Numbered from the stretch's first letter, positions 1,992 to 33,549 are shown. The stretch is DNA of 64,000 bases from a virus (IMGVR_UViG_3300047283_000054), one strand, 5' to 3'. The notes: generated by a model from the letters alone, not told the origin. Program-made: numbers and translations.

Positions 1992-2003
1992 TCGTGTGAA
2001 ACC

Positions 2004-2373: not shown

Positions 2374-5300
2374 TCATAAGTATTTAGTATTAAAATACTT
2401 TTGCAACCAAGGCCAATCATAACTTAAACGTAATTTGTCTAACTCACCATTGACTTGTTCAAAGTATTCTACAGCATCTAATGCACCATTGATACTATAT
2501 TGGGCAAACGGGCCTTCACCTTTAGTCAACCAAGCATCTAGTCTATATTTGCTATCGTCACTAGTACTTGCACGTAGTTTGATTGCTTCTCTAAACGCAG
2601 TACGCCAAGTACTCCATTCGTCTGTATTAAACATTGCTACACCACTATTCATATCAACAACTTCGTGTTCGTTGTCTAATGTGAAGTCTAATCCAGTACC
2701 TTGATTACCTAACACAATCTTCTTATTGTAAGCAATCATAGCTTGGTGGCCGTATACTAATCCATTAACAGGGTTAGTAGCGTGGAAGATGTAATGCTTA
2801 GGTACTTGAAGTCTATCAGGTTGCCAAGAGAAGTCAAATTTATCATTAACACGCAACTTAGCAAATACAGTGAACATCCAAGGTGTGGTACTTGCTTCAG
2901 CTGCCGCATGATAAGCCTGCACACGACCATTGACTCCATCAACTCTAACGACTCTATTATTTAATCCCTTAGTCACTTTTAGCAAGTGTTCATAGTTCTC
3001 GTCAGATCCAGTTTCACCATTACTTAGGAAGACTATATCTAACGGTTTAGATTTAGTTAGAGATTTAGCACGTGAGATGTATGGGTAATCATATAACTCA
3101 TTCTCTACATAATCTTTAGCTTCTTTGGGAACAATTATTCGTGTTGCACCCGTACTTGTAATCAAAATGTTCTTAGTATCAGGTGTCCACAAACTAATAG
3201 GTTCAATATCTTGTATATCTAATCCTTTGTTATCTTCCGTGACAAACGTAGCATAAGGCCAATCAAAATCAGTATGAATATTAGTGACATGGGTATCTTC
3301 TTTCGTAATAATTATAGGTGCGGGTAATCGTTTTACTCTTTGATGTTGATTGTAGTTAACCTTTTCATAGTCTTCCATCATAATCATATCATCAATCAAT
3401 GATTTGAATTTGTTTACATCAATTAAAAATGTGTCTCCAAATTTCTGTTTATCACTAGGGAACACATGTAATTGCTCTCTAGCATATGGATCACATATAT
3501 AGCTGAAGTCAAAATTTTCATAATCACATATACTTGAACAGATCCAAAGATAATGTTCTTTTCTAGTGTCTAATTTTTTTAATATCTCTTTGAATGTTTT
3601 TAGGTAGCTATGCTTATAGTCAACTGTAGTTATAGATTTATTATCAATCTTAGATTTGATAACTTCATTTACATTTGACTTGTTTCCATGATTGATTAAT
3701 ATCACATCATACAATGAACCTTCTGCTTTGGCTCTCTTATCTTTAACAAAGTTAAGCATACTTAAATGTTCAATGATTTTGACATATTTGGTATCTTCAT
3801 TGAATGAGTTCTTGTTCACCAAGTATGTATTACCCCAATGAGTCCATTGACTACCGAACACATGAATCATTCGTTTTTGCCAAGGATTAGGGTTATAGTC
3901 AAAGCTAAACTCAGTATAATCTAATTCACTAGACAATACCCAAAACAGTTCAGTTGTACTTTTAGATGTGCAACGTGATATTGTTTCTACCCATGAATTC
4001 AAATATCTAGTTTTCTGAATAGCAGGAAATTGTAATTTTAGTTTTTCAAATCTATACCTGCTTTCACTATTGCCCTTATCAACAAAGAACATATCACGGT
4101 GTATTATCTTTTGAATAACTTCGTCAGTAGTTTCAACTACAATGTTTTCTCTTGCGGATTCATCATAGTCTAATGTAATTGTTGTTTTAAAGTCAGGTAC
4201 AATGTAAACAGGACCATCAGTACCCCACTCATATCGTGCAGGATCTTTGTTAGGATTAGGTCTCCAAGAGAAGTCAAATGCTTTCAAGTCTAATTCATTA
4301 CGAACCAACCAGTTAGTCATATTCACTTTAGGAGTAGCAATGATAGAGTCTAAGAATTTGTACTCAGTCGCACCCTCAACACGATACATCACAGTGGGTT
4401 CTGTTTCAGCATCATTCCATTTATTACCAAATACATAGATGAAAGGTGGCTCTAATGGATCAGGTCTCCAGCTAAAATCAAACTTAGAAATAGACAACAA
4501 TATTTCCCACTGAGGATCCTTCTCAGTAGATTTTACCATAGCGACAGCATCCTCTATGTATTTGTATTCAGTTGCCCCGGGTACAGTATAAGATACAGTG
4601 GGTTCCATGAAGCAATTGTTCCATTGATTACCCCATACGTATATGTATGGTGGACTGTCAGGGTGTGGTCTCCAACTAAAGTCAAAGTTATCTACTGGGA
4701 TAAGTGTCTCCCAGTTTTCAGTAGTAGGTGCAACATTAGCAGTTACATCATTAATATATTTCTTTTGTGTTGCCCCAGGCACAGTATAGATAACAGTCGG
4801 CTCAGTAACAGCATCAAACCATTGATTACCAAACACGTAGATGAACGGTTCTTCTGTGGTATCTGGATGCCAACTATAGTCAAAATCTTTTACAGGAATT
4901 AATGTTTCCCAATTATCTTTGTTTGATAATGCTTTTGCCTTTGTTACATCAACATATTGTATATCGCTATCTTCTGTGCATCCGACTGCATAGAACTTAG
5001 GACCGCCTGTTCGTTGCCATTGCGTTCCAAATTGATATATCAAAGGTGCGTGGTCTATATCAGGATGCCAACTAAAATCAAAATCAGTTGTATCAATACC
5101 TTCAGGTATTGTCCAATGCATCTTATCTTGTTTGGCTGTTGCTATCTGTGCATCAATATATTTTATTTCGGTTGCACCAGGTACAACATATCTAGGGCCT
5201 CCGGTGCGTGTCCATTGGTCAGGAAATTGATAGATGAATGGTTCTTCCGTCGAATCAGGATGCCAACTAAAATCAAATTTAGATTGGTCTATATTTTTAG

Positions 5301-6441
5301 GTACTTGCCAATTTTCAAATTCTGTACAAACAACTTCTGCTTTTAATGTATCAATATATTTTATATCTGTTGCTCCGAGAACTACATATCTTGGTCCACC
5401 TGTTTTTTGCCATTGTGTACCAAATTGATATATGAACGGTGGGTCATGCGGATTAGGTTCCCAACTAAAGTCAAATTTATTCTGAAACATATTAGTAGGT
5501 ATATCCCAGTTATCCATGCATGGATTACGTTTGACACGTTCTTCCATGTACTTGTATTCAGTGGCACCTTCTACGTTGCGTATAACACTAATCTTATCTT
5601 CAGGTTTGTTCCATTGATTACCCCAAGCATAGATATATGGTGGCGCAGTTGGATCAGGTACCCATGTCATATCAAATGATGACGGGTCTATATCTTCTAA
5701 TGCTTCAAAGTCAGCCGGTCTAGCTGCCAATTTAGGTACAATATTTTCAATGAACTTACGTTCAGTTGCACCTTCTACGTGATACTCTATCGTTGGCATC
5801 ACACTTGCTGGATACTGATTATTGCCAAATACATAAATGTATGGTGGCGCAGTTGGATCAGGTCTCCAAGTGTAGTCAAAATCTGCCGGCTCATATATAA
5901 TATTGAACAAGCGAGGCATTGATAATAATGTAGCCAATGTATCTGTTATATATTTTTTATCAGTAGCTCCCGGTACATGGTATTCAACTGTTGGCATGAT
6001 AGTACCGGGATACCACTTGTTACCCCAGACATAGATATAGGGGGGATCACTTGGGTCTGGGTGCCACTTAAAATCAAATTTATCTTTTTCAATATATTCA
6101 ATTATTTTCCAGTTACTTGTTACTTCATCTTTAAGAGCTATAGGATCAACATCAGCACGATATATTGTTACAGCATCTATATTGGTCGAGCATAACCAAG
6201 TACCACTGTCTTTTTGATAGGGGCTAGGCCATACGTTGTTGTGTTCTTCTGCCCATACATCTTCATCGGGAAGAAAGTCAAAGTCCCAATCCCAATCAAA
6301 ATCTTTATAATTACATTGTTCGTTGATTACCCAAAAATGTTCTGTTGTGCATTGGCGTTTTGCATCAGATAAATCTGTTGCAAATCTTTCTCTAGGGTGA
6401 ACGTTAGGTTTTTCTCCGAAATAAAATACATCTCTTAGCAT
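2374..6441 (-). CDS. 1355-aa repeat protein with C-terminal glycosyltransferase-like (GT-A-like) modules
   Basis: About 10 repeats of ~66 aa (FDFSWxPDxxxPPYIYxFGNQW...PGATExKYI). The C-terminal module (DIVFLSNGE...RVDGVNGRVQAYHAAAEASTT...NPVNGLVYG...WRTAFREAIKL) aligns by eye with the 30357-31310 protein. Confidence 0.7.
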   Translation of the reverse strand: MLRDVFYFGEKPNVHPRERFATDLSDAKRQCTTEHFWVINEQCNYKDFDWDWDFDFLPDEDVWAEEHNNVWPSPYQKDSGTWLCSTNIDAVTIYRADVDPIALKDEVTSNWKIIEYIEKDKFDFKWHPDPSDPPYIYVWGNKWYPGTIMPTVEYHVPGATDKKYITDTLATLLSMPRLFNIIYEPADFDYTWRPDPTAPPYIYVFGNNQYPASVMPTIEYHVEGATERKFIENIVPKLAARPADFEALEDIDPSSFDMTWVPDPTAPPYIYAWGNQWNKPEDKISVIRNVEGATEYKYMEERVKRNPCMDNWDIPTNMFQNKFDFSWEPNPHDPPFIYQFGTQWQKTGGPRYVVLGATDIKYIDTLKAEVVCTEFENWQVPKNIDQSKFDFSWHPDSTEEPFIYQFPDQWTRTGGPRYVVPGATEIKYIDAQIATAKQDKMHWTIPEGIDTTDFDFSWHPDIDHAPLIYQFGTQWQRTGGPKFYAVGCTEDSDIQYVDVTKAKALSNKDNWETLIPVKDFDYSWHPDTTEEPFIYVFGNQWFDAVTEPTVIYTVPGATQKKYINDVTANVAPTTENWETLIPVDNFDFSWRPHPDSPPYIYVWGNQWNNCFMEPTVSYTVPGATEYKYIEDAVAMVKSTEKDPQWEILLSISKFDFSWRPDPLEPPFIYVFGNKWNDAETEPTVMYRVEGATEYKFLDSIIATPKVNMTNWLVRNELDLKAFDFSWRPNPNKDPARYEWGTDGPVYIVPDFKTTITLDYDESARENIVVETTDEVIQKIIHRDMFFVDKGNSESRYRFEKLKLQFPAIQKTRYLNSWVETISRCTSKSTTELFWVLSSELDYTEFSFDYNPNPWQKRMIHVFGSQWTHWGNTYLVNKNSFNEDTKYVKIIEHLSMLNFVKDKRAKAEGSLYDVILINHGNKSNVNEVIKSKIDNKSITTVDYKHSYLKTFKEILKKLDTRKEHYLWICSSICDYENFDFSYICDPYAREQLHVFPSDKQKFGDTFLIDVNKFKSLIDDMIMMEDYEKVNYNQHQRVKRLPAPIIITKEDTHVTNIHTDFDWPYATFVTEDNKGLDIQDIEPISLWTPDTKNILITSTGATRIIVPKEAKDYVENELYDYPYISRAKSLTKSKPLDIVFLSNGETGSDENYEHLLKVTKGLNNRVVRVDGVNGRVQAYHAAAEASTTPWMFTVFAKLRVNDKFDFSWQPDRLQVPKHYIFHATNPVNGLVYGHQAMIAYNKKIVLGNQGTGLDFTLDNEHEVVDMNSGVAMFNTDEWSTWRTAFREAIKLRASTSDDSKYRLDAWLTKGEGPFAQYSINGALDAVEYFEQVNGELDKLRLSYDWPWLQKYFNTKYL
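2381..2387 (-). promoter_or_regulatory. Putative phage late promoter (CTAAATA) upstream of the tmRNA
   Basis: Same core as the motif found before structural genes; lies just 5' of the acceptor piece. Confidence 0.5.
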
Positions 6442-6451
6442 AGATACTTAC

Positions 6452-7945
6452 TTATGATATAACTTTTACATTATACATTAATTCAAAGCGATCCGCATCT
6501 TTTCGGTCATTTACCATAGGCTCACCTCTAACATTTAATGAGGTATTCAACAACATCGGGCAACCGGTTAACACATACCATTTCTCTAATAGTTCTCGTA
6601 TTCCGGAGCCATCGTTTGGAACTGTCTGTACACGACTAGTCCCGTCAGCGTGAACGATAGCAGGAAATAACTGAGTATGCCTACAGCGAGCGATGACTTG
6701 CATATACCTACTATTATCGAAGCCACGAGGCATATCAAAATACATATCAGCATACTCCTCCAAAATGACTGGTGCAAAGGGTCTAAACTTCTGTCTGCGT
6801 TTAATTTCATTTACTTTGTCCTTGATTTCATTTCCTCTTGGGTCTGCAAGTAAGCTTCTATTTCCCAAGGCCCTTGGCCCAAACTCTGCTCGTCCGTTAG
6901 CGACTCCCACAATTTTGTCAGTAAGTAAACAATCAATAATACGATTAGCAGGATAAACCCCACTAATGTCATGGCCAAGAAAAGCATTAGTCCAGTTAAC
7001 ACGTTTACCATAACCGAGACAGGCCGCTCCAAGACTAGAACCAGCATCGCCAGGATTAGGCATAATCCAAATGTTGTCATAAAATTCTCCTAACAATCTA
7101 TTTGCTGAACAGTTTAATGCTACACCACCACCATATACTAAGTTCTTACTACCACCTAGCATTCTTGCTTTTGATATCACTGATTTAATTAATATTTCTA
7201 CTACATTTTGTGTTGAACTAGCAACATCCATTTCATTTTTATCAACTAAAAATTTATCAGGGGTTCCTATGTGTAAATTTTCTGCAAAACGAATATCCTC
7301 TATGTCTGTAATTAATCCTGACATTACATCTGTGTGCTTAGGATTACCGTAAGCAGCCATACCCATAAGAATATATTCTTCATCCAATGGTCGTAAGCCT
7401 ACATGCTGTGTCATTGCTGAATAAAATAATCCAATACTGTGTGGATACTTTTGTCCCCATAACTTTTTGTACTTTGCTAAACCATTTTTATCATACCAAG
7501 CATTGTAAATGCTAATAGTATCAAACTCTCCGATAGCGTCAATGACAACTACAGTAGCATCATTGTAGGGGCTTGTTTGGAAGCCTGCAGCCGCATGACT
7601 TAAATGATGATTATGTGTATGAACTTTGCCCCCACGTCCATCTTGTAGTTTATGTAATAACCCCGTACCTATAATATCTTTAACAAACAAATTAGATAGT
7701 GAGGGTTTTTCGCCTGAACGAACTTGTCGTAGAAACTTCATCCAAGGTCGTTCATAGTAGTGAATTTCTATGTCACGTGAATTAGTGTATGACAATATAT
7801 CTTCAACTATACCCATACATAGATGTTTGTCATGTTTATCTTTAGAGTATCGTTCACTATGTCCGGCAAACAGTATGTTACCATTATTATCTATAACACT
7901 TAGTGCGGCATCGTGAAATCCTGAGGATATGCCTATATAGTTCAT
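6452..7945 (-). CDS. Carbamoyltransferase, NodU/CmcH/TobZ family
   Basis: GISSGFHDAA, ERYSKDKHD, HHLSHAA, VIDAIGE, GGVALNCSAN, GDAGSSLGAA, EFGPRALGNRSLLADP, FRPFAP, LNTSLN. Start MNYIGIS at 7945 overlaps the upstream TGA (ATGA). Confidence 0.93.
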   Translation of the reverse strand: MNYIGISSGFHDAALSVIDNNGNILFAGHSERYSKDKHDKHLCMGIVEDILSYTNSRDIEIHYYERPWMKFLRQVRSGEKPSLSNLFVKDIIGTGLLHKLQDGRGGKVHTHNHHLSHAAAGFQTSPYNDATVVVIDAIGEFDTISIYNAWYDKNGLAKYKKLWGQKYPHSIGLFYSAMTQHVGLRPLDEEYILMGMAAYGNPKHTDVMSGLITDIEDIRFAENLHIGTPDKFLVDKNEMDVASSTQNVVEILIKSVISKARMLGGSKNLVYGGGVALNCSANRLLGEFYDNIWIMPNPGDAGSSLGAACLGYGKRVNWTNAFLGHDISGVYPANRIIDCLLTDKIVGVANGRAEFGPRALGNRSLLADPRGNEIKDKVNEIKRRQKFRPFAPVILEEYADMYFDMPRGFDNSRYMQVIARCRHTQLFPAIVHADGTSRVQTVPNDGSGIRELLEKWYVLTGCPMLLNTSLNVRGEPMVNDRKDADRFELMYNVKVIS

Positions 7946-8766
7946 TTGATAAATTCCTTGGCAGCATTTACCCATTGCTTATGATGTATTGGGCCAGGAT
8001 GTTTTTTATCTCTTGCTAAATCTGATTCTGCTTGTTCTTTGCTTTCTGAAGCCCACAACGGCAAGATAATACTATTTTTTAGTTTCAAACTTTTAAGTAA
8101 GTTGTATGTTTCAGCGTCCCATGAAGAAAGATATAGTTTTACGTTTCTATTTTTTGCAACATAGTCTATTAAATACATGTCGTTTTTAAAAGTTTTGATT
8201 TGTTCATCATTGGGAATATACTTATATAACATTTCAACATCTACCCCGTAGCTGTACGACAATTCACTTTTTAACCCTGGTATTAAAGATAAGTGAGTTA
8301 ACATATCTTTTTTCATATGCTTTATTCCAATTTGCATTCTATTATAACTAGGTAACAAAAATACAGCATGTTTCATTTGTATGTGTTTGGACGTGATTAA
8401 AAATAACTCTGAAATAGATTTGGCTGACGCACCAGACACACCAAAATTCAAAGATGTTAATTTCAATTCAGTTGCTAATACATTATGCCAAAGATAACTA
8501 TCAGGCAAACCTAACCCAGCAGTAAAACTGCACCCAAATGCGCCCATATCAATACTGTCAGGTATATCATCTGAGAATCGAAATCCTAATTTATTAAAAT
8601 AGTAATCAAAGTTGGGACCTTGCCATGTACAAGCATGTTCAATTTCCCCACGTGATGCAAAATCAACTCTGTATGATTCGTCAGTCCACTTCAAGTATTC
8701 TGTTTTAGTATACCCGATTACATCATCCAATGATTCAGAATCTAATAAGTTAACCAGTTGTATCAT
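7942..8766 (-). CDS. SGNH/GDSL-like hydrolase or acyltransferase
   Basis: FGCSFTAGLG, NFGVSGAS and C-terminal DKKHPG (DxxH). Confidence 0.65.
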   Translation of the reverse strand: MIQLVNLLDSESLDDVIGYTKTEYLKWTDESYRVDFASRGEIEHACTWQGPNFDYYFNKLGFRFSDDIPDSIDMGAFGCSFTAGLGLPDSYLWHNVLATELKLTSLNFGVSGASAKSISELFLITSKHIQMKHAVFLLPSYNRMQIGIKHMKKDMLTHLSLIPGLKSELSYSYGVDVEMLYKYIPNDEQIKTFKNDMYLIDYVAKNRNVKLYLSSWDAETYNLLKSLKLKNSIILPLWASESKEQAESDLARDKKHPGPIHHKQWVNAAKEFIK

Positions 8767-8867
8767 TTATAGATAAATGGATCACGTTTACGTAGTTCTT
8801 TAATACGCTTGCGGTAGCGTATCTCTGCTCTAATCGTATGATATAAATTTTTAATCCACTTGAACAT
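8763..8867 (-). CDS. 34-aa basic peptide ending DPFIYK
   Basis: Below the track cutoff: MFKWIKNLYHTIRAEIRYRKRIKELRKRDPFIYK*. GAGGAG Shine-Dalgarno; fills the gap and overlaps both neighbours. Confidence 0.75.
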   Translation of the reverse strand: MFKWIKNLYHTIRAEIRYRKRIKELRKRDPFIYK

Positions 8868-10158
8868 AATCTGGCTCCTCTTTGCTAATAGTATTTATTA
8901 TATCTACAATCTGAGGAAATATTGCTTTCCAGTCTCTATTCCTACGTTTATCTATGTCAGCTAGGAAGTTAGCAAAATCATTAACTTCCTTCTTGTTTGC
9001 AGGAGTAGTTAATAGTTGTTGCTGTATTCCCATTAAATGAGTTTGTAATTTTTCTTTTTCAATAGGGTCGCTATAATTTTCTAATGCTTTGATTGGTGCA
9101 TCAATGAAATGTGCTAAATATTTTCCAAAGTTGTATGGATTGAATGTTGAGGGTCTAACTACAGTGTTCCAATTAATACCAACAGTAGATTTAATTTTGC
9201 GCCATTCATTTGTTTTTTCTATCAACTGGTGTAAGGTGGGCAACGTCAATGCAGTAAGTGTTGCATGAATCAACACACCTACACCCGGAGCATTTAACAA
9301 CGTGGTCATGTTTTGTTCCCATTCAGTTAATATTAATCCATCACGGACATATTCAATCTCAGGACCCCAGCAATCAATACTACATACAAACTCCATGCGT
9401 TTAAGTTTACCTTGATCAATCAAGTTTTGCACACGTTGAATCTTTGCTTTAAACTTTTCAGGATCATGTTTCAAATTACTAAATGAACGGTATACTAAAT
9501 TTGGTCTGGGGTGTCTATCAAAGAAATCTAAACATTGTTCAAATTCTTTTTGATATAGAGGTTCCCCACCTAATACTTGCAATATTTGTACGTGTTCGCT
9601 ATTCTTCTCCATCCATTCCCAAAATTTTTCTTTGTATAATTCATACTTAGAATCAGGGCGCCATGTGCTATAATCTTGGTTAAACTCACTTGGTCCAAAT
9701 TTACGAACTTCTTGTTCAATCTGACTGCTAAAGCCAGGTGTGCAATACACACATGATTGATTGCATACATTATTGAAGTAAACTTCAAGCAATGTGGGAC
9801 TAACACTTAATGGAATATTATCAAACTCATATGCACGTTGCACGTATCCTTCAAACTCAGGTGGCAACAATTCAATCGATTCATTTACAAATCCTGTCCT
9901 ATCGCTTTTACCGCCGGTCTTTTCAACATCTCTGCAATATTCACATCCGTTACCTGGCCATTCCCCACTTGCCATTTTTTCTCTATCAGCGAGCTTACCG
10001 TGATGATTATGAAAATCCATAAAGTTATCCTCAGTCAATCTCCAATGACGACCTCGATGACAACTTGATGTAGTGCCTCTACTTAAAAATAAGGTGCTCC
10101 ATGCCCATTTGTATAAGCAAGCGGCATCATTTTGTATAGGAAATGTTTTTTTTATCAT
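8851..10158 (-). CDS. Radical SAM protein, N-terminal twitch-like module (subfamily A)
   Basis: CNQSCVYC, GGEP; N-terminal CLYKW...SCH...CEYC. Confidence 0.9.
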   Translation of the reverse strand: MIKKTFPIQNDAACLYKWAWSTLFLSRGTTSSCHRGRHWRLTEDNFMDFHNHHGKLADREKMASGEWPGNGCEYCRDVEKTGGKSDRTGFVNESIELLPPEFEGYVQRAYEFDNIPLSVSPTLLEVYFNNVCNQSCVYCTPGFSSQIEQEVRKFGPSEFNQDYSTWRPDSKYELYKEKFWEWMEKNSEHVQILQVLGGEPLYQKEFEQCLDFFDRHPRPNLVYRSFSNLKHDPEKFKAKIQRVQNLIDQGKLKRMEFVCSIDCWGPEIEYVRDGLILTEWEQNMTTLLNAPGVGVLIHATLTALTLPTLHQLIEKTNEWRKIKSTVGINWNTVVRPSTFNPYNFGKYLAHFIDAPIKALENYSDPIEKEKLQTHLMGIQQQLLTTPANKKEVNDFANFLADIDKRRNRDWKAIFPQIVDIINTISKEEPDYVQVD

Positions 10159-10163
10159 ACAGC

Positions 10164-10171
10164 TATTTATA
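10164..10171 (-). promoter_or_regulatory. Putative late promoter TATAAATA inside the enzyme cluster
   Basis: Exact T4 late consensus, 5 nt upstream of the 10158 start. Confidence 0.5.
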
Positions 10172-10925
10172 GAAGGCGTTGTATGAGGGGGATTATTTCT
10201 CTTTCAAAATAAATCAAATGGCCTTTATCATTTACATGATGATCGGGTGCATAACAAGTTTTATTAAAATTATAATCTCCTTTCCCAGAAGAATTATATC
10301 CAGAAAAATCGTATTTAGAGATATGTGGTATTTGAAATTTACCAATGCATAAAAGTTTTTTTAGAAAAGGTGTATTATATGACTGGGTAGGGAGAGACCA
10401 TATAAATTTTAAATTATTTACTGTTGCAAATCCATATGTTGCTAATAATGCAGTCATTGACAGATTATATCCTATGTCATCGTTAAACAAATGTCTTATA
10501 TACATTTTTTTAGCTTTATTATATGGAATTTCATTTTCCATTTGAGAATGATGATCCCATCCCATTACCCAAGGTACTATAACCTCAGGTTTAACTCCTA
10601 AAGCAACTTCTATCCTTGATGGAAAGGTTCCATTAAATATAACAATATCATCTGCACTTAGTGGATGTTCACTATGATATTCTATTAAGTTACGAAACAT
10701 TCCTTGACTACAATTTGCAGGTATTCCTAAATTTATTACTTCTATATTATTAAATTGATGTTGTAACAACGATGCCCAGCAATATGAACTAGGAATATTT
10801 TGCATAAATGGAGTTTCATCCCCTATGAATGTTTTAGTATCATGGTCATAGTAATATTCACGGTCTGAACAACCGTGCCCAAAAGTATAACTATCTCCTA
10901 ATACTATTACTTTATGTTTCTGCAT
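10167..10925 (-). CDS. SGNH/GDSL-like hydrolase or acyltransferase
   Basis: VLGDSYTFGHG, NLGIPANC and DHHVNDKGH. Confidence 0.7.
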   Translation of the reverse strand: MQKHKVIVLGDSYTFGHGCSDREYYYDHDTKTFIGDETPFMQNIPSSYCWASLLQHQFNNIEVINLGIPANCSQGMFRNLIEYHSEHPLSADDIVIFNGTFPSRIEVALGVKPEVIVPWVMGWDHHSQMENEIPYNKAKKMYIRHLFNDDIGYNLSMTALLATYGFATVNNLKFIWSLPTQSYNTPFLKKLLCIGKFQIPHISKYDFSGYNSSGKGDYNFNKTCYAPDHHVNDKGHLIYFEREIIPLIQRLL

Positions 10926-11653
10926 TCATATCTCTCAGTAATTTCCTTGTCATATCGAAATTCAGTTTGTTTATATAAATCAATAATGTTTTTATCTTGA
11001 CTAAGCAATGATTTAAATATAATCCCGGAAAGTATTGAATTGTTTTCTTTAGAAAGATGACACCATCTATTATCTACCTCACCCATTGACGGTAATTCTT
11101 TTTTACTTACATTAAATAAATTATACAAACAAGCTCCATGCCTTGATTCTAATGATATGGTAGTATTTTTATCTTTTCTATCATCAAACGTAAGTAAGTT
11201 TACAAGTTTGATATTATTACCATAGCACATCATATTTACGTCATTGAATATTTGTTGTTTTATCCAAACATCAAATGGTATTGAAATATTGGGTACATGA
11301 CCGGTTAATATTCTAACCATTTCTAATTCTTGTTGCCTAGATAAATTTTTATTTCTTCTTAACGCATATAACTCATCTGGTGTTGTTAGAAAACTCAAAT
11401 CCTCAAGTCCTTCAGGCAAATGATGTATTCTATGTAATGATGAGTAGCAAAATATGATATGGTCAAACTGTTCTCGGTGAGCTAAAAATTGCTGAAAAGA
11501 GTACCATGTAGAGGACCCTGTTTTACCATACGTAGTTACTTTATGACCAGCGTTCTCCATATCTGCAATCCAAGATTCATCTTCAGTGAAAGGACTTTCT
11601 GGATTGTAGGGATTTCTATCAGCAAAGCTGTCACCAAATATACCTATTCTCAT
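10907..11653 (-). CDS. SGNH/GDSL-like protein
   Basis: IGIFGDSFA, YGKTGSS and C-terminal CHLSKENN (catalytic Asp not evident). Confidence 0.6.
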   Translation of the reverse strand: MRIGIFGDSFADRNPYNPESPFTEDESWIADMENAGHKVTTYGKTGSSTWYSFQQFLAHREQFDHIIFCYSSLHRIHHLPEGLEDLSFLTTPDELYALRRNKNLSRQQELEMVRILTGHVPNISIPFDVWIKQQIFNDVNMMCYGNNIKLVNLLTFDDRKDKNTTISLESRHGACLYNLFNVSKKELPSMGEVDNRWCHLSKENNSILSGIIFKSLLSQDKNIIDLYKQTEFRYDKEITERYECRNIK

Positions 11654-17869: not shown

Positions 17870-17871
17870 TA

Positions 17872-24710: not shown

Positions 24711-26110
24711 TGTATATTATCCCACCATGTTAATAATTTAGGGTTTTGACTATATATGTTACGCATTGTGACTTTTTCATCACCGCGAATTTTTTCTAAA
24801 TGTTCAACCCAACGTTTGCCATTCAATCTTGCAGTTTTATACTTATCAGGCCATTCTTCTTCATGCGTTTTGCGGCTGTCTTTTAATGCCTGTAAATTGC
24901 CAATAAAACTACGTTGTTTCCAAGTAGCACGTGATTTGCAATATAAAAGTATATCATCTACCATTTCATTTAGTATTTCACGTGGCCAACTGGTTGGACT
25001 CCACATGATATCTGGATGAAATGCAAATGTAATCTTTGTAATAATTTCAACATCTAACTCAATGCTCAAATCAAACAACTCTTTTAATGAGAACATTCCC
25101 GGGGCTGTAATAGTTAAGTCTAACTTCATTTTGTCTTTGCCACCGGGCAATGCCAATCCTTGTTTAAAATTTTCTAACCATTTGTCCCATTTGATTCCAG
25201 TACGAATGTATTCTACAATATCACCTGTACCATCAATACTTGCACACATCATCCAATCTTTATAGTGTGGTAGATAGTCATATAAGTTTTTCTGACCAAA
25301 TTGAACACGACTTAAATTGCTATTATAACGCATATAACAATTCTTAGCAGAACCATTTTTTAACATTTCTTCTAATGTCCACCAATGCACATCATACATC
25401 AATGGTTCTCCACCAACCCAATACATTTCTTCAACAATACCGCGACTTACTGCATCACGAAACTCTGGTTCAACTACAGTTTGTTGAAAGTCTTGCATCG
25501 CAGATTTAATTTCAGGAATCATAAAAGGTTGATTTTTAGGAGTCCACATGTTATTAATCTTTTTTTCAGTTTCCCATGTTGAACTCAATTGTTCACCACA
25601 CATGCGACACTTAAAGTTACATAGATTGCTGAAACGGTAGTCAAAACTTATTGGCTCCATTGAAGTAAATCCAGTATCGTCTGTGGTATCAAATGCTTGT
25701 TGAATTTTATCTTTAAACAATACACCAGTGAACCATCCACGATAGCTTTCACCCTCCATCAATAAGTTTTTATTACACACATCACATTGAGGTATCTCTT
25801 CTCCTCGCATTAGTTTTACACGAATATCTTTCATGTACTCACTATTCCAATGTTCTTTTAAACTTATAGGTTGATAGTCATCTAATGCTGTTTTGCTTTC
25901 AGTTACAGTACCATACTTTGAATCGTTACTACTATCAATGTATTGCTTCTGGAAAGAATGTTCTTCACGTGATGCACAACACATCCTACGTTCGCTTTGC
26001 GGGCTAATGTAAGTATGTGTCCACGGTGCCATACAAAATACTTTGTTTGGACTGTCAGGGTGGGGTTTTGCATCTGTACCCCATATTGGTATTATTTTAT
26101 TAGTATCCAT
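24707..26110 (-). CDS. Radical SAM protein, N-terminal twitch-like module (subfamily B)
   Basis: CMAPWTH...MCC...CDVC; CNFKCRMC; VGGEP. Confidence 0.9.
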   Translation of the reverse strand: MDTNKIIPIWGTDAKPHPDSPNKVFCMAPWTHTYISPQSERRMCCASREEHSFQKQYIDSSNDSKYGTVTESKTALDDYQPISLKEHWNSEYMKDIRVKLMRGEEIPQCDVCNKNLLMEGESYRGWFTGVLFKDKIQQAFDTTDDTGFTSMEPISFDYRFSNLCNFKCRMCGEQLSSTWETEKKINNMWTPKNQPFMIPEIKSAMQDFQQTVVEPEFRDAVSRGIVEEMYWVGGEPLMYDVHWWTLEEMLKNGSAKNCYMRYNSNLSRVQFGQKNLYDYLPHYKDWMMCASIDGTGDIVEYIRTGIKWDKWLENFKQGLALPGGKDKMKLDLTITAPGMFSLKELFDLSIELDVEIITKITFAFHPDIMWSPTSWPREILNEMVDDILLYCKSRATWKQRSFIGNLQALKDSRKTHEEEWPDKYKTARLNGKRWVEHLEKIRGDEKVTMRNIYSQNPKLLTWWDNIQ

Positions 26111-27260
26111 ATTCTTTTGCTAATTCTTGGTATTCAGGAAACACATCTATAAATGATTGATTTCTACGGAGATCAACTTCTTTGAGTGACTTAAAGGCTA
26201 ACGGTAGTAAGAGTGTTTTATCGGCTGAATTCATATAATCAATTATATATTTACATTTAGAAGTTGTACTTAGTAGAGGAATACTTTCTAAATATTCTTT
26301 TGCTTTTTTCTTTATGTTTGCTGGTAGATTTTGAATCGAGAATTTGGGTTCCCACATTGCATTAAAGTTAAATTCAAAATTACCGTTATTTATTTTTTTA
26401 ATCTCATCTAATAATTCACCAATTCTAAATAAAGTAGGCCAAGCTAAAGTGATTATATAAAGAATATCTACGTTATTTGATTTATTTTTTATATCCCTAA
26501 TATTATTCGCAATAGTATCCCAATCGGCACCTGATCCGGGGCGCCAATAATCAACTGCTGAACCAGAAACGTCTAAACTTACTCTATATAAAATTTTATT
26601 AAAATGCTTCCATTTTTCAGTAATATGTGTTCCCTTAAAGGTGATGTTACTGCCATTACTATAATATAATAGGTCAATCTTTTTGTTGTTAGCAATAAGA
26701 TGGTCTAAAAACTCCCAATGCTGCCAATGTAACATTGGTTCGCCTCCGCTAAAAGTAACAGCTTCTAACTCATCGGTGTATTGTTTAATTTCATTTAACA
26801 CAAAATCTTCTGTAGGGCCGGCGAATTTTAATATAGGGCCATTGTATCTACCGTATGTTTTTTCTTCACTTGCTATTGCAGAACTTACACTACTATAGCA
26901 TATCCTACATTTGCAATTGCATAAGTTAGAAAATCGAACTTCAACGTGTTGTATTTTTGTTTTTTCGTAAATACTTTTATCAGGAAATCTTTGTAAAATT
27001 CCCGAGCGCATTGAATGAAATCCAATATCCTCGTATTTATAGCATCGCTCATTGCAATATCCTGTAGTCCTAACTTCATTTATCATATCAGTTTTGATTT
27101 GTGATAGTGGTTTAGAATTTAGATATTCTGTTACGGAAACTGCGGACACTAACGGATTAAGCGAACACGGCCCCATTCTATTCGTCATATCATAATATAA
27201 TGAATTGAAGGGATAGGGGCACTTAACTGTTTGCGTATGATCCGTAAGATACTCACTCAT
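26100..27260 (-). CDS. Radical SAM protein, N-terminal twitch-like module (divergent subfamily B)
   Basis: CPYPF...GPCS...CNERC; CNCKCRIC; SGGEP. Confidence 0.88.
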   Translation of the reverse strand: MSEYLTDHTQTVKCPYPFNSLYYDMTNRMGPCSLNPLVSAVSVTEYLNSKPLSQIKTDMINEVRTTGYCNERCYKYEDIGFHSMRSGILQRFPDKSIYEKTKIQHVEVRFSNLCNCKCRICYSSVSSAIASEEKTYGRYNGPILKFAGPTEDFVLNEIKQYTDELEAVTFSGGEPMLHWQHWEFLDHLIANNKKIDLLYYSNGSNITFKGTHITEKWKHFNKILYRVSLDVSGSAVDYWRPGSGADWDTIANNIRDIKNKSNNVDILYIITLAWPTLFRIGELLDEIKKINNGNFEFNFNAMWEPKFSIQNLPANIKKKAKEYLESIPLLSTTSKCKYIIDYMNSADKTLLLPLAFKSLKEVDLRRNQSFIDVFPEYQELAKEYGY

Positions 27261-28783
27261 TGTAAATCTGGGTTGACAAACACATCTTTACTTGGATCCT
27301 CTGGTGGATGATCTGGTATTAAATCAACACCCTGACGATAATTTTGTGTGTTAATTTCCTCTGCAGTGGGTAGCTCTGTTTGAATACTATCATAGAATGC
27401 GACAAACTCTGGTGGGAAAGTATTACGGAAATTTTTACCACGACGGACATCATACTGGGCATAGAACTGTTTGAAGTCTCTACGATTCTGTTCAATGTCT
27501 TTAACATTCTTGTGCGGTGTCTTAATAACGTCAAGGTAATCAATCAATCGTTGAGTCTGTTCTCGCTCAATACTCATAAGCATTTGTTTACCATCAGTAG
27601 TACGGAAATCCATAGCAATTTGATTATCTAACCATACTTGCAATTGGTCTTTATACTTTTGACGAATCTCTGTTGGTAACATAGCACAAGATTGAAAGCT
27701 AGGGAAACGCAATATGTTTAAGCTCATTGTAGGATAAACTGTATTATGAATCTTTTTGAATTCCATCATCTGATCCATGAATTGAACAATACTTGCCAAA
27801 CATAAACTATTGATAGTCATCATCATGTGAGTCTTTTTGATGTTGCCTTCAGTATGTAATCTACCTAAGTTATGAATCCATTTGTTCCAATCGAATCCAT
27901 CACGAATATATTCAGCATGAGCACCAAACGCTTCACAACTTGTGTATACTTCCATATATGGAACAAAGTGACTATACTCAATCAACTTGTCCATAATCTC
28001 ATCTTTAGGAACTAAGTTACTATTAATTGCATAACGCAACACTTTGCCATCTGGACGATTAGTAGCACGTTCTTGGTTGTTACGGAACCATTCAAACAAC
28101 TTCCATACGCCCGGGGCCATTAATGGCTCACCACCTGTAATGCGAATTTCTTCTAAGTTGTCTGCAAGACCATCTTCCCACCAACGCCAGAACGCTTGAC
28201 TGTATGGGTTGATTTCATCTGGTAATGGTTTAGCATGGTCAGCTTCGTTAATAAAGTGACTACGTGCGTCACCATCGATATTACGATAAGGACCAAACTT
28301 ATGAATATCTTTAACCCATGTTGTACTGAAACTTGGGTTGCAATAACTACAAGCAAAGTTACATGTACGGTCAAAAGAGATTTCTAATGTTTTTAACATT
28401 GTATTCTCTTGCCAATCTGCTTTAGCAGTATGTAGGATATGTTCTTCTTCAAACACAGCAGTTTTATAAACACGGTCACTCATGTTATCACGACCAATAT
28501 CTTCAATCTTCCAGCAGTATTCACACTCTTGCGGACGTTTACCTTCTTGCATTAACTTACGCATATACTTCTTATGCGGAGTATTGTGAATTGCGGATGG
28601 ATTAGTGAGTAACTCTGCCGCATCAATTTGATGACCCAATGGGTGGTGACAACTTGTTGTTTGTCCGTTGCCTAACCAGATAGTAGCGTTAAGCCATTTA
28701 GCGGCACAATAACTGTCGCTAATAGGATCGATAAGTCTTGCTTTATATTGTGCGAATGATTCTTCGTGTTTCTTGCCTGCCAT
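27257..28783 (-). CDS. Radical SAM protein, N-terminal twitch-like module (subfamily A)
   Basis: CAAKW...SCHHP...CEYC; CNFACSYC; TGGEP. Confidence 0.9.
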   Translation of the reverse strand: MAGKKHEESFAQYKARLIDPISDSYCAAKWLNATIWLGNGQTTSCHHPLGHQIDAAELLTNPSAIHNTPHKKYMRKLMQEGKRPQECEYCWKIEDIGRDNMSDRVYKTAVFEEEHILHTAKADWQENTMLKTLEISFDRTCNFACSYCNPSFSTTWVKDIHKFGPYRNIDGDARSHFINEADHAKPLPDEINPYSQAFWRWWEDGLADNLEEIRITGGEPLMAPGVWKLFEWFRNNQERATNRPDGKVLRYAINSNLVPKDEIMDKLIEYSHFVPYMEVYTSCEAFGAHAEYIRDGFDWNKWIHNLGRLHTEGNIKKTHMMMTINSLCLASIVQFMDQMMEFKKIHNTVYPTMSLNILRFPSFQSCAMLPTEIRQKYKDQLQVWLDNQIAMDFRTTDGKQMLMSIEREQTQRLIDYLDVIKTPHKNVKDIEQNRRDFKQFYAQYDVRRGKNFRNTFPPEFVAFYDSIQTELPTAEEINTQNYRQGVDLIPDHPPEDPSKDVFVNPDLQ

Positions 28784-28791
28784 TTTATTCC

Positions 28792-30360
28792 TTAATGTTT
28801 AGTGTGCGATTTGATACATTCTCTCCAGTAACTCTTTAGTTCCGGAAACGTTTCCATAAAATTCGTTTGCCTGCGTCTATCATATTCAGTGATGAACATG
28901 TAGAAGTTCTTCTTATTTAGTAATAGTTGCTCTTGGGGTAGAGATTCTTTCATTATAGCAAGGTCTCGCTTGATTTTCAATAGCTCATATGGTTTAAATC
29001 CCTCAAATGTTTCCAAATAGTCGTCACCCTGTACATTATCTTCCATGTACTTTAAGCAACGTTCTACTTCATCGATACCATATTGTCCTGCATTTTGAAT
29101 ACTGAACCAAGGAGGGTATCTTAGTATTGGAATGTCAAAGAATACACGTTGGTATTTCTTTTGGGTATAGACTTTGTGAACAATGTCGTTCTCTTTTTCT
29201 GTTTCTGTTTGTTCTGGTGCAATCTCAAATTCAACTTGACTACGACCACCAAACTCTGCTCTTAACTCTAATACCATTTCTAAGAACTTATGTAAGCTAG
29301 GAATAGACATGATGTTAAACGTATTAATAAAGCTAACAGTACTATACTTTGTTTCACGTAAAAAGGTTCTTACATTATTAAGCATACGTTCAAACTCTAA
29401 GCCAGTACGCATATATTCAGCTTGTTCACCGAATCCATCTAATGATACAAATAACCAAAAGTGTTTGAATCCTTTATCTACATACCAATGATTGCCACTG
29501 AACTCATTAAAGTTTTCTTTATCTTCGTATGTACGTAGTTCTTCAATTGCTTTAACTTTCTCAATAAACTTGTCAAACAACTTCTGGTCGGGAGGACACA
29601 TATTGCTTGTGATAGATAACTCAAGTTGGCCGTGAGGATTCTCATTCACGTAGTCAAGTACTTTGAATGTGTTCTTGTCCATGAGTGGCTCACCACCTGT
29701 CATTCTGAATACACGTAGTTTGCGATAGATTTCAGGAAACCATTGCCAGAATGCTTCAACATAAGGATTGTCTTTGTTTGCAACCTTAAGTGGCATCATC
29801 CCTTTTTGTTCTAATGCCTCTAAGTTATTATGTATCATTCCGGTTAATTGATAACCACCGTGCTTCTTAACTTCTTCTTCCCAACTACTGGAAAGATGTG
29901 GACTACAATACATACATTTAAAGTTACATGCTTGATTGAAATTGACTTCTACGTATCGAGGGACAACATCATAGTCAAATTTATTTTGAGTAACTTCTTC
30001 AAACGTAGGTGCATTCCACCACTCACTACTGCGATAGTGTCTATCACTCATATGACCTTTAGGATCATCACTTATAGCATCTTCTACTTTCCAGCAGTAA
30101 CTACAACCTTCTGGTCGTTTGCCTTCAAGCATTTGTTTACGTTCGTGTATTTTGATGGGAGTATTATGTAAAGCACTAGGTTGTAATTTTAATAAGTCCA
30201 AGGGGATTTTGTGTGTGGGTGGGTGGTAACAACTCTGTGTCAATCCACTAGGTAAGTGAATTGATACTTGTTGCCATTTAGCAAGACACAAAGATGGGCT
30301 GACCGCATTTAAGCGGTCACGCATATCACGGGCAAACTGGTCGTACTCGCCGCTCATCAC
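28792..30360 (-). CDS. Radical SAM protein, N-terminal twitch-like module (subfamily A)
   Basis: CLAKW...SCYHPP...CSYC; CNFKCMYC; TGGEP. Confidence 0.9.
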   Translation of the reverse strand: MMSGEYDQFARDMRDRLNAVSPSLCLAKWQQVSIHLPSGLTQSCYHPPTHKIPLDLLKLQPSALHNTPIKIHERKQMLEGKRPEGCSYCWKVEDAISDDPKGHMSDRHYRSSEWWNAPTFEEVTQNKFDYDVVPRYVEVNFNQACNFKCMYCSPHLSSSWEEEVKKHGGYQLTGMIHNNLEALEQKGMMPLKVANKDNPYVEAFWQWFPEIYRKLRVFRMTGGEPLMDKNTFKVLDYVNENPHGQLELSITSNMCPPDQKLFDKFIEKVKAIEELRTYEDKENFNEFSGNHWYVDKGFKHFWLFVSLDGFGEQAEYMRTGLEFERMLNNVRTFLRETKYSTVSFINTFNIMSIPSLHKFLEMVLELRAEFGGRSQVEFEIAPEQTETEKENDIVHKVYTQKKYQRVFFDIPILRYPPWFSIQNAGQYGIDEVERCLKYMEDNVQGDDYLETFEGFKPYELLKIKRDLAIMKESLPQEQLLLNKKNFYMFITEYDRRRQTNFMETFPELKSYWRECIKSHTKH

Positions 30361-31310
30361 CAGCCCTGAATCTGACGAATAACTTCCATCTCTGTTACCA
30401 GTGGGCCACGATTGTATTTGTCTGCACCATAGTGACGTTTAAAGAATTTACTTTGTAAGCCATCTAATGTGGCCATCGGTAGTCCTAGTTTATTATTCAA
30501 TGCGGCTCCTAGTAATGCTGATTCACGCACAGGATCTCTATTCACGTGTTCTTCCCACAACGTGATGTAGTTATCAAACCATTGAACATTGGCGTGATCC
30601 CATTCAGTAAGCATAGTCATGTATGTACCAAGACGGGCACCATATATAGCCCATTCACCGTTCTCAACATCCATACCAACATTATGCCATATCGTTAAGT
30701 TATCTAAGTTACGACTTGCTACTGTTTCTTTAAATTGATCCACAGTAGGACGAGCACCTCTATCTAAACTCATCTTAACACCTTCACGAAAACCTGCACG
30801 CCAAGCTTGAAATGGTGTCATATTTGGATATGTAGTTGAATAGCAATCCCACATAGCCCAATATAAGTTATCATCCCCGCCCATACAGAAGTCAGCAATA
30901 CGTGATACATCACCGTCTTTTTGATGTTCATGTGTTTTCATATTAGCAACATATTCTTTAGTCCAACTGCTCATGCCACCATTACCATAACGCAATCCGT
31001 TAATGTTATTGATAGCTTTCCAACGAAACTGTGCTTGTCTAAACTTTTCGTCTTTGTCAGTAAAGTCTAATTGAATGTTGAAGAAACTTTCTTCAGGCAT
31101 GTTGTCGCCGTCAATTAGAATGAAGCGTTCTGTGTCACTCGCTTCACCGGCGGCTTTGTGTGCCGCATCACTGCCCTTAACATTGTCAACACGCTTTGCC
31201 CAAGGCACCATGTGTTTAACTTTAAGCCAAAATTCTTCTTTCTGTGGTTCATCATAGCTTAGATAAATGCAATCTAAGTCTGCTACATCAATAATATCAT
31301 TCGAGTTCAT
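30357..31310 (-). CDS. Glycosyltransferase-like protein (GT-A fold)
   Basis: DCIYLSYDEP...RVDNVKGSDAAHKAAGEASDTERFILIDGDN, with DxD after a hydrophobic strand as in GT2-like enzymes. Confidence 0.65.
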   Translation of the reverse strand: MNSNDIIDVADLDCIYLSYDEPQKEEFWLKVKHMVPWAKRVDNVKGSDAAHKAAGEASDTERFILIDGDNMPEESFFNIQLDFTDKDEKFRQAQFRWKAINNINGLRYGNGGMSSWTKEYVANMKTHEHQKDGDVSRIADFCMGGDDNLYWAMWDCYSTTYPNMTPFQAWRAGFREGVKMSLDRGARPTVDQFKETVASRNLDNLTIWHNVGMDVENGEWAIYGARLGTYMTMLTEWDHANVQWFDNYITLWEEHVNRDPVRESALLGAALNNKLGLPMATLDGLQSKFFKRHYGADKYNRGPLVTEMEVIRQIQGW

Positions 31311-31632
31311 ATGTTGTTAATTTCCAATTAATAGTTTTACCTTTGTAGGTTTTATCTACTATAATACTAATATCTTCTTCAGCACAAGCAATACCATCTT
31401 CCTTACTAGGCATAAGCTTTGATACAACTGCACTTGCAACTACAGTAGAAATTTTCCCGTCAATGACTCTAACGTCCGGTCTACCTATAGCATATGTTGT
31501 TGCATCAATTACGATGTAGTTACCTTCAGGCTTCTCACAACTGTAGAAAAGCACTTTACCTTTATCGTCATAGTAAAGTCTGAATTCAGGTTTGATGATA
31601 GCTGGAGCTTCCCAGAGTATTACATGTTCCAT
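31297..31632 (-). CDS. Hypothetical protein
   Basis: 111-aa ORF overlapping both neighbours in the operon. Confidence 0.75.
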   Translation of the reverse strand: MEHVILWEAPAIIKPEFRLYYDDKGKVLFYSCEKPEGNYIVIDATTYAIGRPDVRVIDGKISTVVASAVVSKLMPSKEDGIACAEEDISIIVDKTYKGKTINWKLTTYELE

Positions 31633-32393
31633 TTATATTTCTCTATTAGTTTATCACTAAATGACTTTATATGATAGTGAAATGGATATTCTTGTACGTA
31701 TGTGTTCACCTTAATTGCATCGGTGGTACATTCGTATACAAGAGTATCAGTCCAATTTTCAGTAAATGTTCCGGTAATAAATTGCTTCATATGAGTCATT
31801 GACAATTCATTAAAATTAGGTAGTGTAGTTTTTTCTACTCCAATAATATGACTTGCAATAGCGTATACCCAATCAGTAGTTGCTTCTTCTGTTGGATTAC
31901 ATTTTAATATTGCTTTATATTCTTCCCAATTCTCAAACACATTTCTGACAATACCAAAGAATTGTTCTGCTGTCTCAGACTTTTTAAAATAAGTAATGGC
32001 GTTATAAATATCAGGAAGATTGTTGTCATCAATGAATTTTCGATATACTCTTACATTAGAAATTTCACCTTTATAATTACGAATATTCGTACATAATGTC
32101 ACATCGTTGATTGACATTATATCAAACCAATGGTCAATGCTTCGTGGTAAAAATATATCAGCTTCTAACTTGATTGTTTCGTCATACGGACTTGCTTCAT
32201 ACACTTGCCAATCATTAATGAGCTTCCAATCACTATCAGGTGCTTGATCGCCGTGTGGTAACATATCAGTTGTGATAATAGTTACATTAGCATCAGGCAT
32301 TACTCGTTTGATACTTAGTTCTAATATTTCAGCACACTTAACATAGTCGGTTTTTTCTGTGTTTTGTGCCATGATTACAAAACCTCTTGTCAT
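31620..32393 (-). CDS. Glycosyltransferase-like protein (nucleotide-diphospho-sugar transferase), EAD in place of DxD
   Basis: RGFVIMA...YVKCA...SPYDETIKLEADIF; paralogue of 32390-33193. Confidence 0.65.
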   Translation of the reverse strand: MTRGFVIMAQNTEKTDYVKCAEILELSIKRVMPDANVTIITTDMLPHGDQAPDSDWKLINDWQVYEASPYDETIKLEADIFLPRSIDHWFDIMSINDVTLCTNIRNYKGEISNVRVYRKFIDDNNLPDIYNAITYFKKSETAEQFFGIVRNVFENWEEYKAILKCNPTEEATTDWVYAIASHIIGVEKTTLPNFNELSMTHMKQFITGTFTENWTDTLVYECTTDAIKVNTYVQEYPFHYHIKSFSDKLIEKYKWNM

Positions 32394-33193
32394 TCTATTA
32401 ATTCCATAAAGTTAAGTTTGTTCATTACATGGAAATCCATATCTTTGATTGTGGTATATTCTTTTTTAAGTTTACTGCGTTGCCAATTGTCATGTATTAT
32501 AGTATATTCTGTGTTAAATTCATCATCATTGTTTTTATAGATATGAACATTCTTTTGGCCCAAATGAACTAAGTTCCACGGGATAAAATCTTGTTTAACA
32601 GATGTGTGCCCGTTCGCTATTCTAAGTGCAAGTGTTAGTGCGTAATCGTTTCTAAATGTCCCGGCAACAAACCCATGCAAGTTGCTATAATGTTCAAAGT
32701 TTTTCTGGACCATTTCCAAACACTCAAATATTTGTTTAGCACGATTAGATTTTTTAAATGCAACTACTGTAGCCCATAATGTTTCAAAACTATATACACT
32801 AAGAACTTCTTGTACCAATCCAGGCTGCATTAGATAACTTGTTTTGTTATGACAACAAAAGTCATCATAGTAATTGAATACATCTAATATCTTATTTGAG
32901 TTGACCATATAGTCAGTATCAAGCAATAGTGTTTCATCATACGGACTAAGTTCATATGCTTGATATCGACCTTTGTTGATCCACATTCCCCAATCTCGGT
33001 TATTGCTTTTATCAGGCTCGACTAATATAGTGTTGTCAAATTTATAAAGGTCATTAGATAATGAGGATTCATCTGTCACAACTGTGACAGGCATGTCCAA
33101 AAAGTGATTGATTCGTTTTGCAGTAGCAACTGCCATTTTGTAGTAATCAAACTTTGGCGAATTGAATGCAAATAATATTGCTCCTCTGCTCAT
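32390..33193 (-). CDS. Glycosyltransferase-like protein (GT-A fold, DxD)
   Basis: RGAILFA...YYKMA...SPYDETLLLDTDY...RNDYAL...FHVMNK. Confidence 0.7.
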   Translation of the reverse strand: MSRGAILFAFNSPKFDYYKMAVATAKRINHFLDMPVTVVTDESSLSNDLYKFDNTILVEPDKSNNRDWGMWINKGRYQAYELSPYDETLLLDTDYMVNSNKILDVFNYYDDFCCHNKTSYLMQPGLVQEVLSVYSFETLWATVVAFKKSNRAKQIFECLEMVQKNFEHYSNLHGFVAGTFRNDYALTLALRIANGHTSVKQDFIPWNLVHLGQKNVHIYKNNDDEFNTEYTIIHDNWQRSKLKKEYTTIKDMDFHVMNKLNFMELIE

Positions 33194-33498
33194 CGCTTAG
33201 ACTCTAACTCTTTCCATTCTTTGTGCCAATCAAGCATAACTTTTTGATAAGTAGACTTTAATACTTCTAATAGTTGTTCACGTTTAACTTCTACTGGATT
33301 ATCAAATGTATCAATTAATATGACAAAGTTATCATCACTTAATGCACTTAAGAATCCGATAAATTCAGGAGTTGCTTTCCAAAGTCCCCCTTGTTCGGCA
33401 ACAATAAACTTGCCGTCATACTTATCTTTTAATTGTGCTTTGGCACTGTTGTGATTAAATCTGGCTTTCGCCTCGCTGATTAAGGTTTTGGTATCCAT
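33190..33498 (-). CDS. Hypothetical protein (possible tail-fibre assembly-type protein); first gene of the enzyme operon
   Basis: 102 aa, AGGAG Shine-Dalgarno, located just downstream of the fibre genes. Function inferred from position only. Confidence 0.6.
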   Translation of the reverse strand: MDTKTLISEAKARFNHNSAKAQLKDKYDGKFIVAEQGGLWKATPEFIGFLSALSDDNFVILIDTFDNPVEVKREQLLEVLKSTYQKVMLDWHKEWKELESKR

Positions 33499-33519
33499 CT
33501 ATAACTCCTGACTTAAGAG

Positions 33520-33526
33520 TATTTAG
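33520..33526 (-). promoter_or_regulatory. Putative late promoter (CTAAATA) at the head of the enzyme operon
   Basis: In the 51-nt gap between the structural and enzyme blocks; same core as the other motifs. Confidence 0.55.
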
Positions 33527-33549
33527 ATAGATACCAATCTATTGAAAAA

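Follow-up and report, generated by a model that had tools for sequence, protein, structure and literature searches.

A tail-linked locus with fifteen radical SAM genes in a freshwater jumbo phage probably makes a modified glycan

Virus-encoded glycosylation islands are known, as are cassettes of glycosyltransferase (GT) and radical S-adenosylmethionine (SAM) genes next to tail fibre genes (PMC7029224). The host recognition cluster of pelagimyophages and cyanomyophages is a variable, GT-rich island by the tail fibres, lying between vrlC and gp14 in the Cyano-T4 phages, and the phages differ by their radical SAM cassettes; modification of the host O-chain was favoured as its role, and no family, mechanism or test was given (PMC7029224). 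Here we describe a locus on a 64,000-nucleotide (nt) stretch of viral DNA (IMGVR_UViG_3300047283_000054, below called the window), which represents the tail region of a freshwater jumbo phage of Rak2/XacN1-like lineage and carries every gene on the minus strand. Common to this locus and the pelagimyophage cluster are a variable GT-rich island in the structural region and the radical SAM cassettes. The present locus differs by a fixed five-gene core, a fixed end formed by a carbamoyltransferase and a multi-GT protein, 15 radical SAM genes, and its lineage, the nearest cultured relative grouping with XacN1. No paper was found on the locus, its conserved core, the reaction of its predominant radical SAM family (N_Twi), the multi-GT repeat protein or the 34-residue peptide described below.

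Glycans on the capsid and tail tube of mycobacteriophages are cited in PMC12619734. The fold matches of the GTs encoded by the locus include the capsid GT of chlorovirus PBCV-1 and GTs of Mimivirus. Systems of this kind share with the present locus soluble, virus-encoded enzymes of the GT-A fold that work without the host secretion machinery; glycosylation has been shown there, and here it is predicted from the genes. We know of no virion glycosylation system with a radical SAM array or a carbamoyl relay.

The locus comprises 26 open reading frames (ORFs) of at least 80 residues and one of 34 residues (8763-8867), making 27 genes, all on the minus strand and spanning 33498 to 2374. Spacing between the ORFs ranges from -56 to +14 nt, with a single exception of 84 nt, which houses the 34-residue ORF. 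On recheck the tailoring locus is real. An earlier note, made from the sequence, had described a co-oriented, nearly overlapping run of about 31 kb with 15 radical SAM genes and no membrane anchors on the enzymes, and each of these points was borne out: a CxxxCxxC motif combined with a Radical_SAM match occurs in exactly 15 ORFs, all of which also match NF033640, and none of the locus ORFs has a membrane-like segment (maximum 19-residue hydropathy 1.47).

The gap between the last tail gene and the operon measures 51 nt. A TAAATA motif lies at 33525 (33520-33525), 27 nt before the first gene, and the same motif precedes structural genes (35775, 58758, 59254). We take TAAATA to be a late promoter from its likeness to the late promoter of T4. 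It stands before the first core gene in 77 of 79 related loci and before inner core genes in 0-4%, and the late-type expression anticipated earlier is thereby backed by its signal. No terminator-like site was seen in the gap, again as anticipated, the first strong one downstream lying at 2032-2009; scans for sigma-70 promoters and terminators gave results at chance level. The core promoter has an extended conserved form, TATCYATCTAAATA (33520-33535), and the structural genes carry the form AGATAAATA instead. Metatranscriptome contigs of relatives cover both parts of the array and tail genes; strand, level and timing are unreadable in them, and DNA was possibly present.

The GT core follows three structural or tail genes (33550-36398), which always stand directly before it. 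It begins with a 102-residue protein (33190-33498) without family or structure match, followed by two GT8-like proteins, a 111-residue protein (31297-31632; single copy) and a 317-residue GT (30357-31310). The first GT8-like protein, of 267 residues (32390-33193), has a DTD motif with D92 and D94 invariant and is a paralogue of the second (25% identity, E 4e-12). The latter, of 257 residues (31620-32393), is GT8/GT77-like with an invariant E77-x-D79, and its Atlas feature neighbours are PF03407 and PF01501 (0.94-0.95); neither of the two gave a Pfam or PDB sequence match. For the 317-residue protein, from a family without a Pfam model, structure prediction (pLDDT 92) gave a GT-A domain of small size that resembles B4GALNT1 (Z 9.5, rmsd 3.0 over 143), its DxD being 97/99% conserved; the fold alone would also fit a nucleotidyltransferase. 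Searches of Pfam, PHROGs, NCBIfam and PDB sequences left the core genes unnamed. The 102- and 111-residue proteins were also considered as tail-fibre chaperones (DUF4376/Tfa-like), and the searches gave no support.

The order from the tail genes through the two small and three GT genes was found in 79/79 close and 62/62 more distant loci, these 141 being the related loci with enough flank. As the loci are kin, this order shows stability and not independent events. The tail gene at 33550-34503 has a distant homologue in Pseudomonas jumbo phages that is annotated as a virion structural or baseplate protein. Upstream, a structural protein of 6258 residues (36563-55339, minus strand) contains 20% Ser+Thr and is 35-85% identical among relatives.

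Behind the core lies the radical SAM array. In 14 of the 15 ORFs the four-cysteine twitch domain is N-terminal, preceding the CxxxCxxC core (N_Twi_rSAM). The first of these (28792-30360) belongs to a subfamily usually found right after the core, RsoM2USA included, RsoM2USA being the cultured Ralstonia phage introduced below; the second (27257-28783) is 50% identical to RsoM2USA ORF202, and the third (26100-27260) is missing in the closest relatives. Further N_Twi genes are at 24707-26110, 23460-24710, 21598-22824, 20315-21601, 19170-20324, 17872-19173, 16667-17869, 15361-16677, 14075-15368 and 12822-14075, and a last one at 8851-10158, with TAAATA 11 nt upstream, scored 233 bits against a curated NF033640 cut-off of 170 bits. 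The twitch domain is C-terminal only in 11650-12822, which reached 52 bits. The earlier note had spoken of BtrN-type twitch enzymes. The twitch domain is present, but the domain order of BtrN, the radical SAM dehydrogenase of butirosin biosynthesis, is found in 11650-12822 alone, itself without a sequence match to BtrN, and is reversed in the others. Within the array, 22769-23467 was called as a short-chain dehydrogenase/reductase; a match to this family exists as proposed, though a weak one (E 0.006).

BtrN and the array have the four-cysteine twitch auxiliary domain in common, the twitch region giving a weak profile match to that of BtrN (E 0.002). All four cysteines are kept in 13 of the 14 N_Twi copies. 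Together, the weak match and the kept cysteines suggest an oxidation chemistry. The exception, 14075-15368, has lost the first cysteine and carries, relative to two close relatives, a frameshifting 35-nt deletion near 15315. This copy is a pseudogene or an assembly error, and the frameshift leaves 14 of the 15 radical SAM genes intact.

One might regard the array as a neutral, recently amplified set of redundant copies, given the broken copy and the variable number among relatives. Five relatives, four near-complete (335-364 kb) and one partial, served for the genome-wide tests, and they range from 2 to 14 in the N_Twi copies that exceed the cut-off, the relative G001 having 14. This explanation is hardly credible. 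The paralogues are only 20-45% identical and fall into old subfamilies common to other phages and bacteria, the tree resolving two younger pairs (19170-20324 with 16667-17869, 43%; 17872-19173 with 14075-15368, 45%). Moreover, gene order is kept, and dN/dS between the window and G001 is 0.03-0.08 in 9 of 12 radical SAM pairs. The array is under strong purifying selection.

That the substrate is a sugar is best supported by the cellular N_Twi genes found, which all lie in glycan loci. The family is rare in cells: among about 900 genomes searched, N_Twi genes were found in three, leaving aside one metagenome-assembled genome (MAG) with phage contigs. All four cellular loci are glycan loci. One (L114 4235-11894) contains rmlC, rmlD, wzm, a wzt fused in frame to N_Twi, three tandem N_Twi genes, TylF, a methyltransferase and WbsX; a Methylomagnum plasmid has N_Twi among GTs and wzm/wzt; the third adjoins GT2 and epimerase genes; and the fourth, read by eye only, lies by GT2-like genes. 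With NF033640 itself, 14 copies share the domain order; here, gene context and the Wzt fusion link the family to glycan loci. The match in a Polynucleobacter MAG in GTDB was rejected as a cellular case, since it sits on phage contigs. On these contigs (L116 10793-16863; L117 2655-3843, 10265-11392) the N_Twi genes stand amid gp46/47-like and helicase-like genes, and iscA/iscU-like genes were read by eye. Taking the cellular contexts with the GT core, we consider it highly likely that the phage locus makes a glycan; the locus itself is real and under selection.

These cellular contexts also bear on where the glycan goes. The target of the enzymes could be an envelope polysaccharide of the host, edited or rebuilt while still a lipid-linked precursor in the cytoplasm, leading to receptor masking or superinfection exclusion. 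The closest cellular contexts are indeed Wzm/Wzt loci, with one N_Twi fused to Wzt; the same role has been suggested for the GT-rich island of pelagimyophages (PMC7029224), and the 270-min latent period of RsoM2USA would leave time for surface remodelling. We nevertheless regard this as unlikely in view of the late-type promoter, the fixed place in the tail module and the lack of any membrane protein in the locus; GtrA, an AT3 acyltransferase and a WbaP-type primer were not found in the five relatives. The GT core also appears far more conserved than host O-antigens would lead one to expect. Serotype conversion of the Gtr/Oaf type was rejected separately, its membrane flippase, transferase and AT3 acyltransferase being found neither in the locus nor in the five relatives.

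Between its ends the locus varies among relatives. Their middle regions contain NDP-sugar epimerases, UDP-glucose and GDP-mannose dehydrogenases, RmlC, a DegT aminotransferase, a sugar C-methyltransferase, B12 radical SAM enzymes and DUF6071 SGNH proteins, and the locus usually ends with the carbamoyltransferase followed by the large multi-GT protein. It is built like an O-antigen cluster, with fixed ends and a swappable middle. Genes resembling amidinotransferases by eye, without Pfam match, adjoin the DegT gene in two related loci (L093 18770-19750; L097 2473-3483). An IscU-like scaffold is encoded by 4 of the 5 relatives, in line with a heavy iron-sulfur demand; one relative has an IscU-like match with an internal TAG (G002:C1:179358-179741).

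Among the 50,697 records searched, Ralstonia phage RsoM2USA (MG752970) alone of the cultured phages had homologues. In this phage the core and one N_Twi gene follow a tail gene, and about 90 kb from them lies a second module, preceded by TATAAATA, with the order SGNH, N_Twi, SGNH, peptide, SGNH, carbamoyltransferase. The earlier note had held that clusters unlinked to tail genes would count against it, and in part such cases exist. The core is tail-linked in all loci counted, but the carbamoyl module of RsoM2USA is remote from the tail, and single N_Twi genes occur near thyA and replication genes: only the GT core is strictly tail-linked, and the tailoring genes are not. RsoM2USA ORF358 (L081 13585-14562) is NDP-sugar epimerase-like; preceded by TAAATA, it is inserted between the genes for the tail sheath and the tail tube.

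The locus encodes three SGNH-like proteins. The first (10907-11653) shows by its motifs a GDS serine and a His, the triad Asp not being evident; the second (10167-10925) rests on motifs and weak Lipase_GDSL_2 and DUF6071 matches. A third (7942-8766) has a GCS serine and is the only one with a clear DxxH; Ser and His are present in all three, the Pfam matches staying below cut-off. The 34-residue peptide precedes the third SGNH-like gene, and an O-carbamoyltransferase of the CmcH/NodU/TobZ family follows it (6452-7948, start corrected to 7948), in which both Carbam_trans Pfam domains were found, in agreement with the earlier NodU/TobZ assignment.

The same carbamoyltransferase superfamily acts on 5-hydroxymethylcytosine (5hmC) in phage DNA, as do phage GT-A enzymes (PMC8670742), and the locus could accordingly place glycosyl or carbamoyl groups on hydroxymethylpyrimidines. 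In relatives, moreover, an NDP-sugar epimerase, a DegT aminotransferase and one or two radical SAM genes lie beside thyA and DHFR (L090 6351-10515; L095 12543-16110), a module which may supply nucleotide sugars. DNA hypermodification, an alternative raised by the earlier note, is very improbable all the same. The partner enzyme of the 5hmC system, dCMP hydroxymethylase with Asp at E. coli position 177, was not found; each of the five relatives has a single thymidylate synthase with Asn at this specificity position (criterion of PMC8670742). No TET/JBP match exceeded its cut-off, and the promoter is of the late type. Restriction palindromes are avoided in the window and relatives (CGCG 0.25; TCGA 0.10 in one), RsoM2USA showing no avoidance. 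The neighbouring GT and SGNH genes correspond to a context found on unmodified contigs (PMC8670742).

All of the phage loci counted (16/16) have the 34-residue peptide close to the carbamoyltransferase, as does RsoM2USA. It has a basic, amphipathic start, no membrane helix and an invariant, aromatic C-terminus, DPFIYK; such endings are rare, occurring in 32 of 36,388 segments, 26 of which are the peptide. In the bacterial DUF5989 peptides the end is APFIYTLF, and a carbamoyltransferase lies within 1.5 kb in 25 of 30 loci. This end corresponds to the FxYxxF tyrosine shuttle motif, by which acyl groups are passed to SGNH serines in DltX and PatA (PMC12148441). The SxtI-SxtJ-SxtK-SxtL block (PMC2684587) and these shuttles have a carbamoyltransferase, a small peptide ending in PFIY and SGNH proteins in common with the phage module; here, by contrast, the membrane helix is lacking, no SxtJ was seen, and the ending is FIYK and not FxYxxF. 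The peptide did not qualify as a member of DUF5989/SxtK, with no Pfam match and a profile match of only 12 columns (E 0.0012, probability 19%). Despite this it may work as a soluble tyrosine carbamoyl shuttle in the manner of DUF5989/SxtK; if so, the loss of the helix would suggest an acceptor in the cytoplasm. Complex prediction of the carbamoyltransferase with the peptide scored 0.08 and was counted neither way.

The last gene (2374-6441, TAAGTA upstream) encodes a protein of 1355 residues with ten beta-rich repeats of about 66 residues (about 106-770), followed by three GT-A-fold domains (Z 12.0, rmsd 2.9 over 142). Chondroitin polymerase was the best Foldseek match (E 7e-6), the best structural matches being two-domain polymerases. 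The number of repeats varies from 9 to 26 among homologues and did not track the number of radical SAM genes in five genomes. As its GT-A domains lack DxD, the protein may be a scaffold or a polymerase that works without a metal ion. Within the repeats there are P[FY]IY motifs reminiscent of the C-terminus of the 34-residue peptide, and the repeats are similar to the part of the GT-A domains of this protein that follows the DxD position; they gave no Atlas match, and fold searches barely tested them.

Such aromatic repeats, or the 34-residue peptide with its invariant aromatic C-terminus, could themselves be radical SAM substrates on the way to a small molecule, free or linked to a peptide, that resembles an aminoglycoside or a ribosomally synthesised and post-translationally modified peptide. 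Aminotransferase, carbamoyltransferase, methyltransferases and twitch radical SAM enzymes are indeed aminoglycoside-type tools. This is rather improbable, however: there is no exporter, the peptide tracks the carbamoyltransferase and not the radical SAM count, the 66-residue repeats are predicted to be folded, and the cellular N_Twi loci are polysaccharide loci.

Directly after the operon lies a permuted transfer-messenger RNA (tmRNA) of betaproteobacterial type (1987-2407, minus strand; tag ANDEHFALAA), with a short tandem repeat (unit about 21 nt) near 2230-2290. Beyond the tmRNA and the terminator follows pstS (915-2018, minus strand). The tmRNA and pstS point to a betaproteobacterial host.

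Gene content, folds, order, promoter motif and purifying selection are shown directly. There is support, too, for a late-type promoter, fixed linkage of the GT core to the tail genes, enzymes that are soluble and a substrate that is a sugar; the steps of the following mechanism are inferred. A late-expressed cytoplasmic locus would synthesise and edit a glycan. The fixed GT-A trio would prime and extend a sugar chain on a tail or fibre protein encoded just upstream, and the 1355-residue protein would extend or scaffold this chain, the variable repeat number possibly setting its length. Each N_Twi enzyme would abstract one sugar C-H, with the four-cysteine twitch cluster as electron sink, and the outcome would be oxidation, epimerisation or deoxygenation. 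The carbamoyltransferase would load the Tyr of the 34-residue peptide, from which the carbamoyl group would pass via SGNH serines to sugar hydroxyls. The product would be a phage-specific modified glycan on the virion.

We put the probability that the virion is the destination at about 0.55; the late-type motif speaks for it, as does the constant position of the GT core. Several points weigh against it. Glycan and acceptor are both deduced from genes; the Ser/Thr richness of the tail proteins, which the earlier note had mentioned, is ordinary for fibre proteins and proves nothing. The related loci do not count as independent occurrences, and the tailoring genes do not always stand by the tail, as the RsoM2USA module and the single N_Twi genes show. 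Pseudomonas jumbo phages have the related structural gene without the GT core, so that the locus is dispensable for building such a tail. In cells, the N_Twi loci act on polysaccharides that are made in the cytoplasm before ABC export, where soluble phage enzymes could reach them too. On the side of mechanism, the peptide has only PFIY of FxYxxF and no DxD is present in any of the three GT-A domains of the 1355-residue protein, the last keeping an invariant Lys and a downstream Asp. We know of no reaction for any N_Twi enzyme of the NF033640 family, nor of any system in which a tyrosine peptide has been shown to shuttle carbamoyl groups.

If the virion is the destination, one may tentatively go further and picture a tail coat in a very widespread group of aquatic jumbo phages, a glycan polymer edited by up to 15 position-specific radical SAM enzymes, carbamoylated by way of a soluble tyrosine-shuttle peptide and sized by a repeat-bearing multi-GT protein, amounting to a viral serotype system based on radical sugar chemistry, for which we know of no characterised precedent. 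Although its homologues form at least 8000 clusters, the core GT has no Pfam model, which marks a sizeable part of the biology of aquatic phages as uncharacterised. The locus points to a class of substrates for an orphan radical SAM family, provides naturally paired enzymes as a library for the chemistry of sugar C-H bonds, and gives an entirely soluble setting for the question whether SxtK-type peptides shuttle carbamoyl groups. As the cultured RsoM2USA has both the core and the carbamoyl module, the main question is open to experiment. Variable virion glycans would bear on how large phages adsorb, decay and are grazed, and on their host range.

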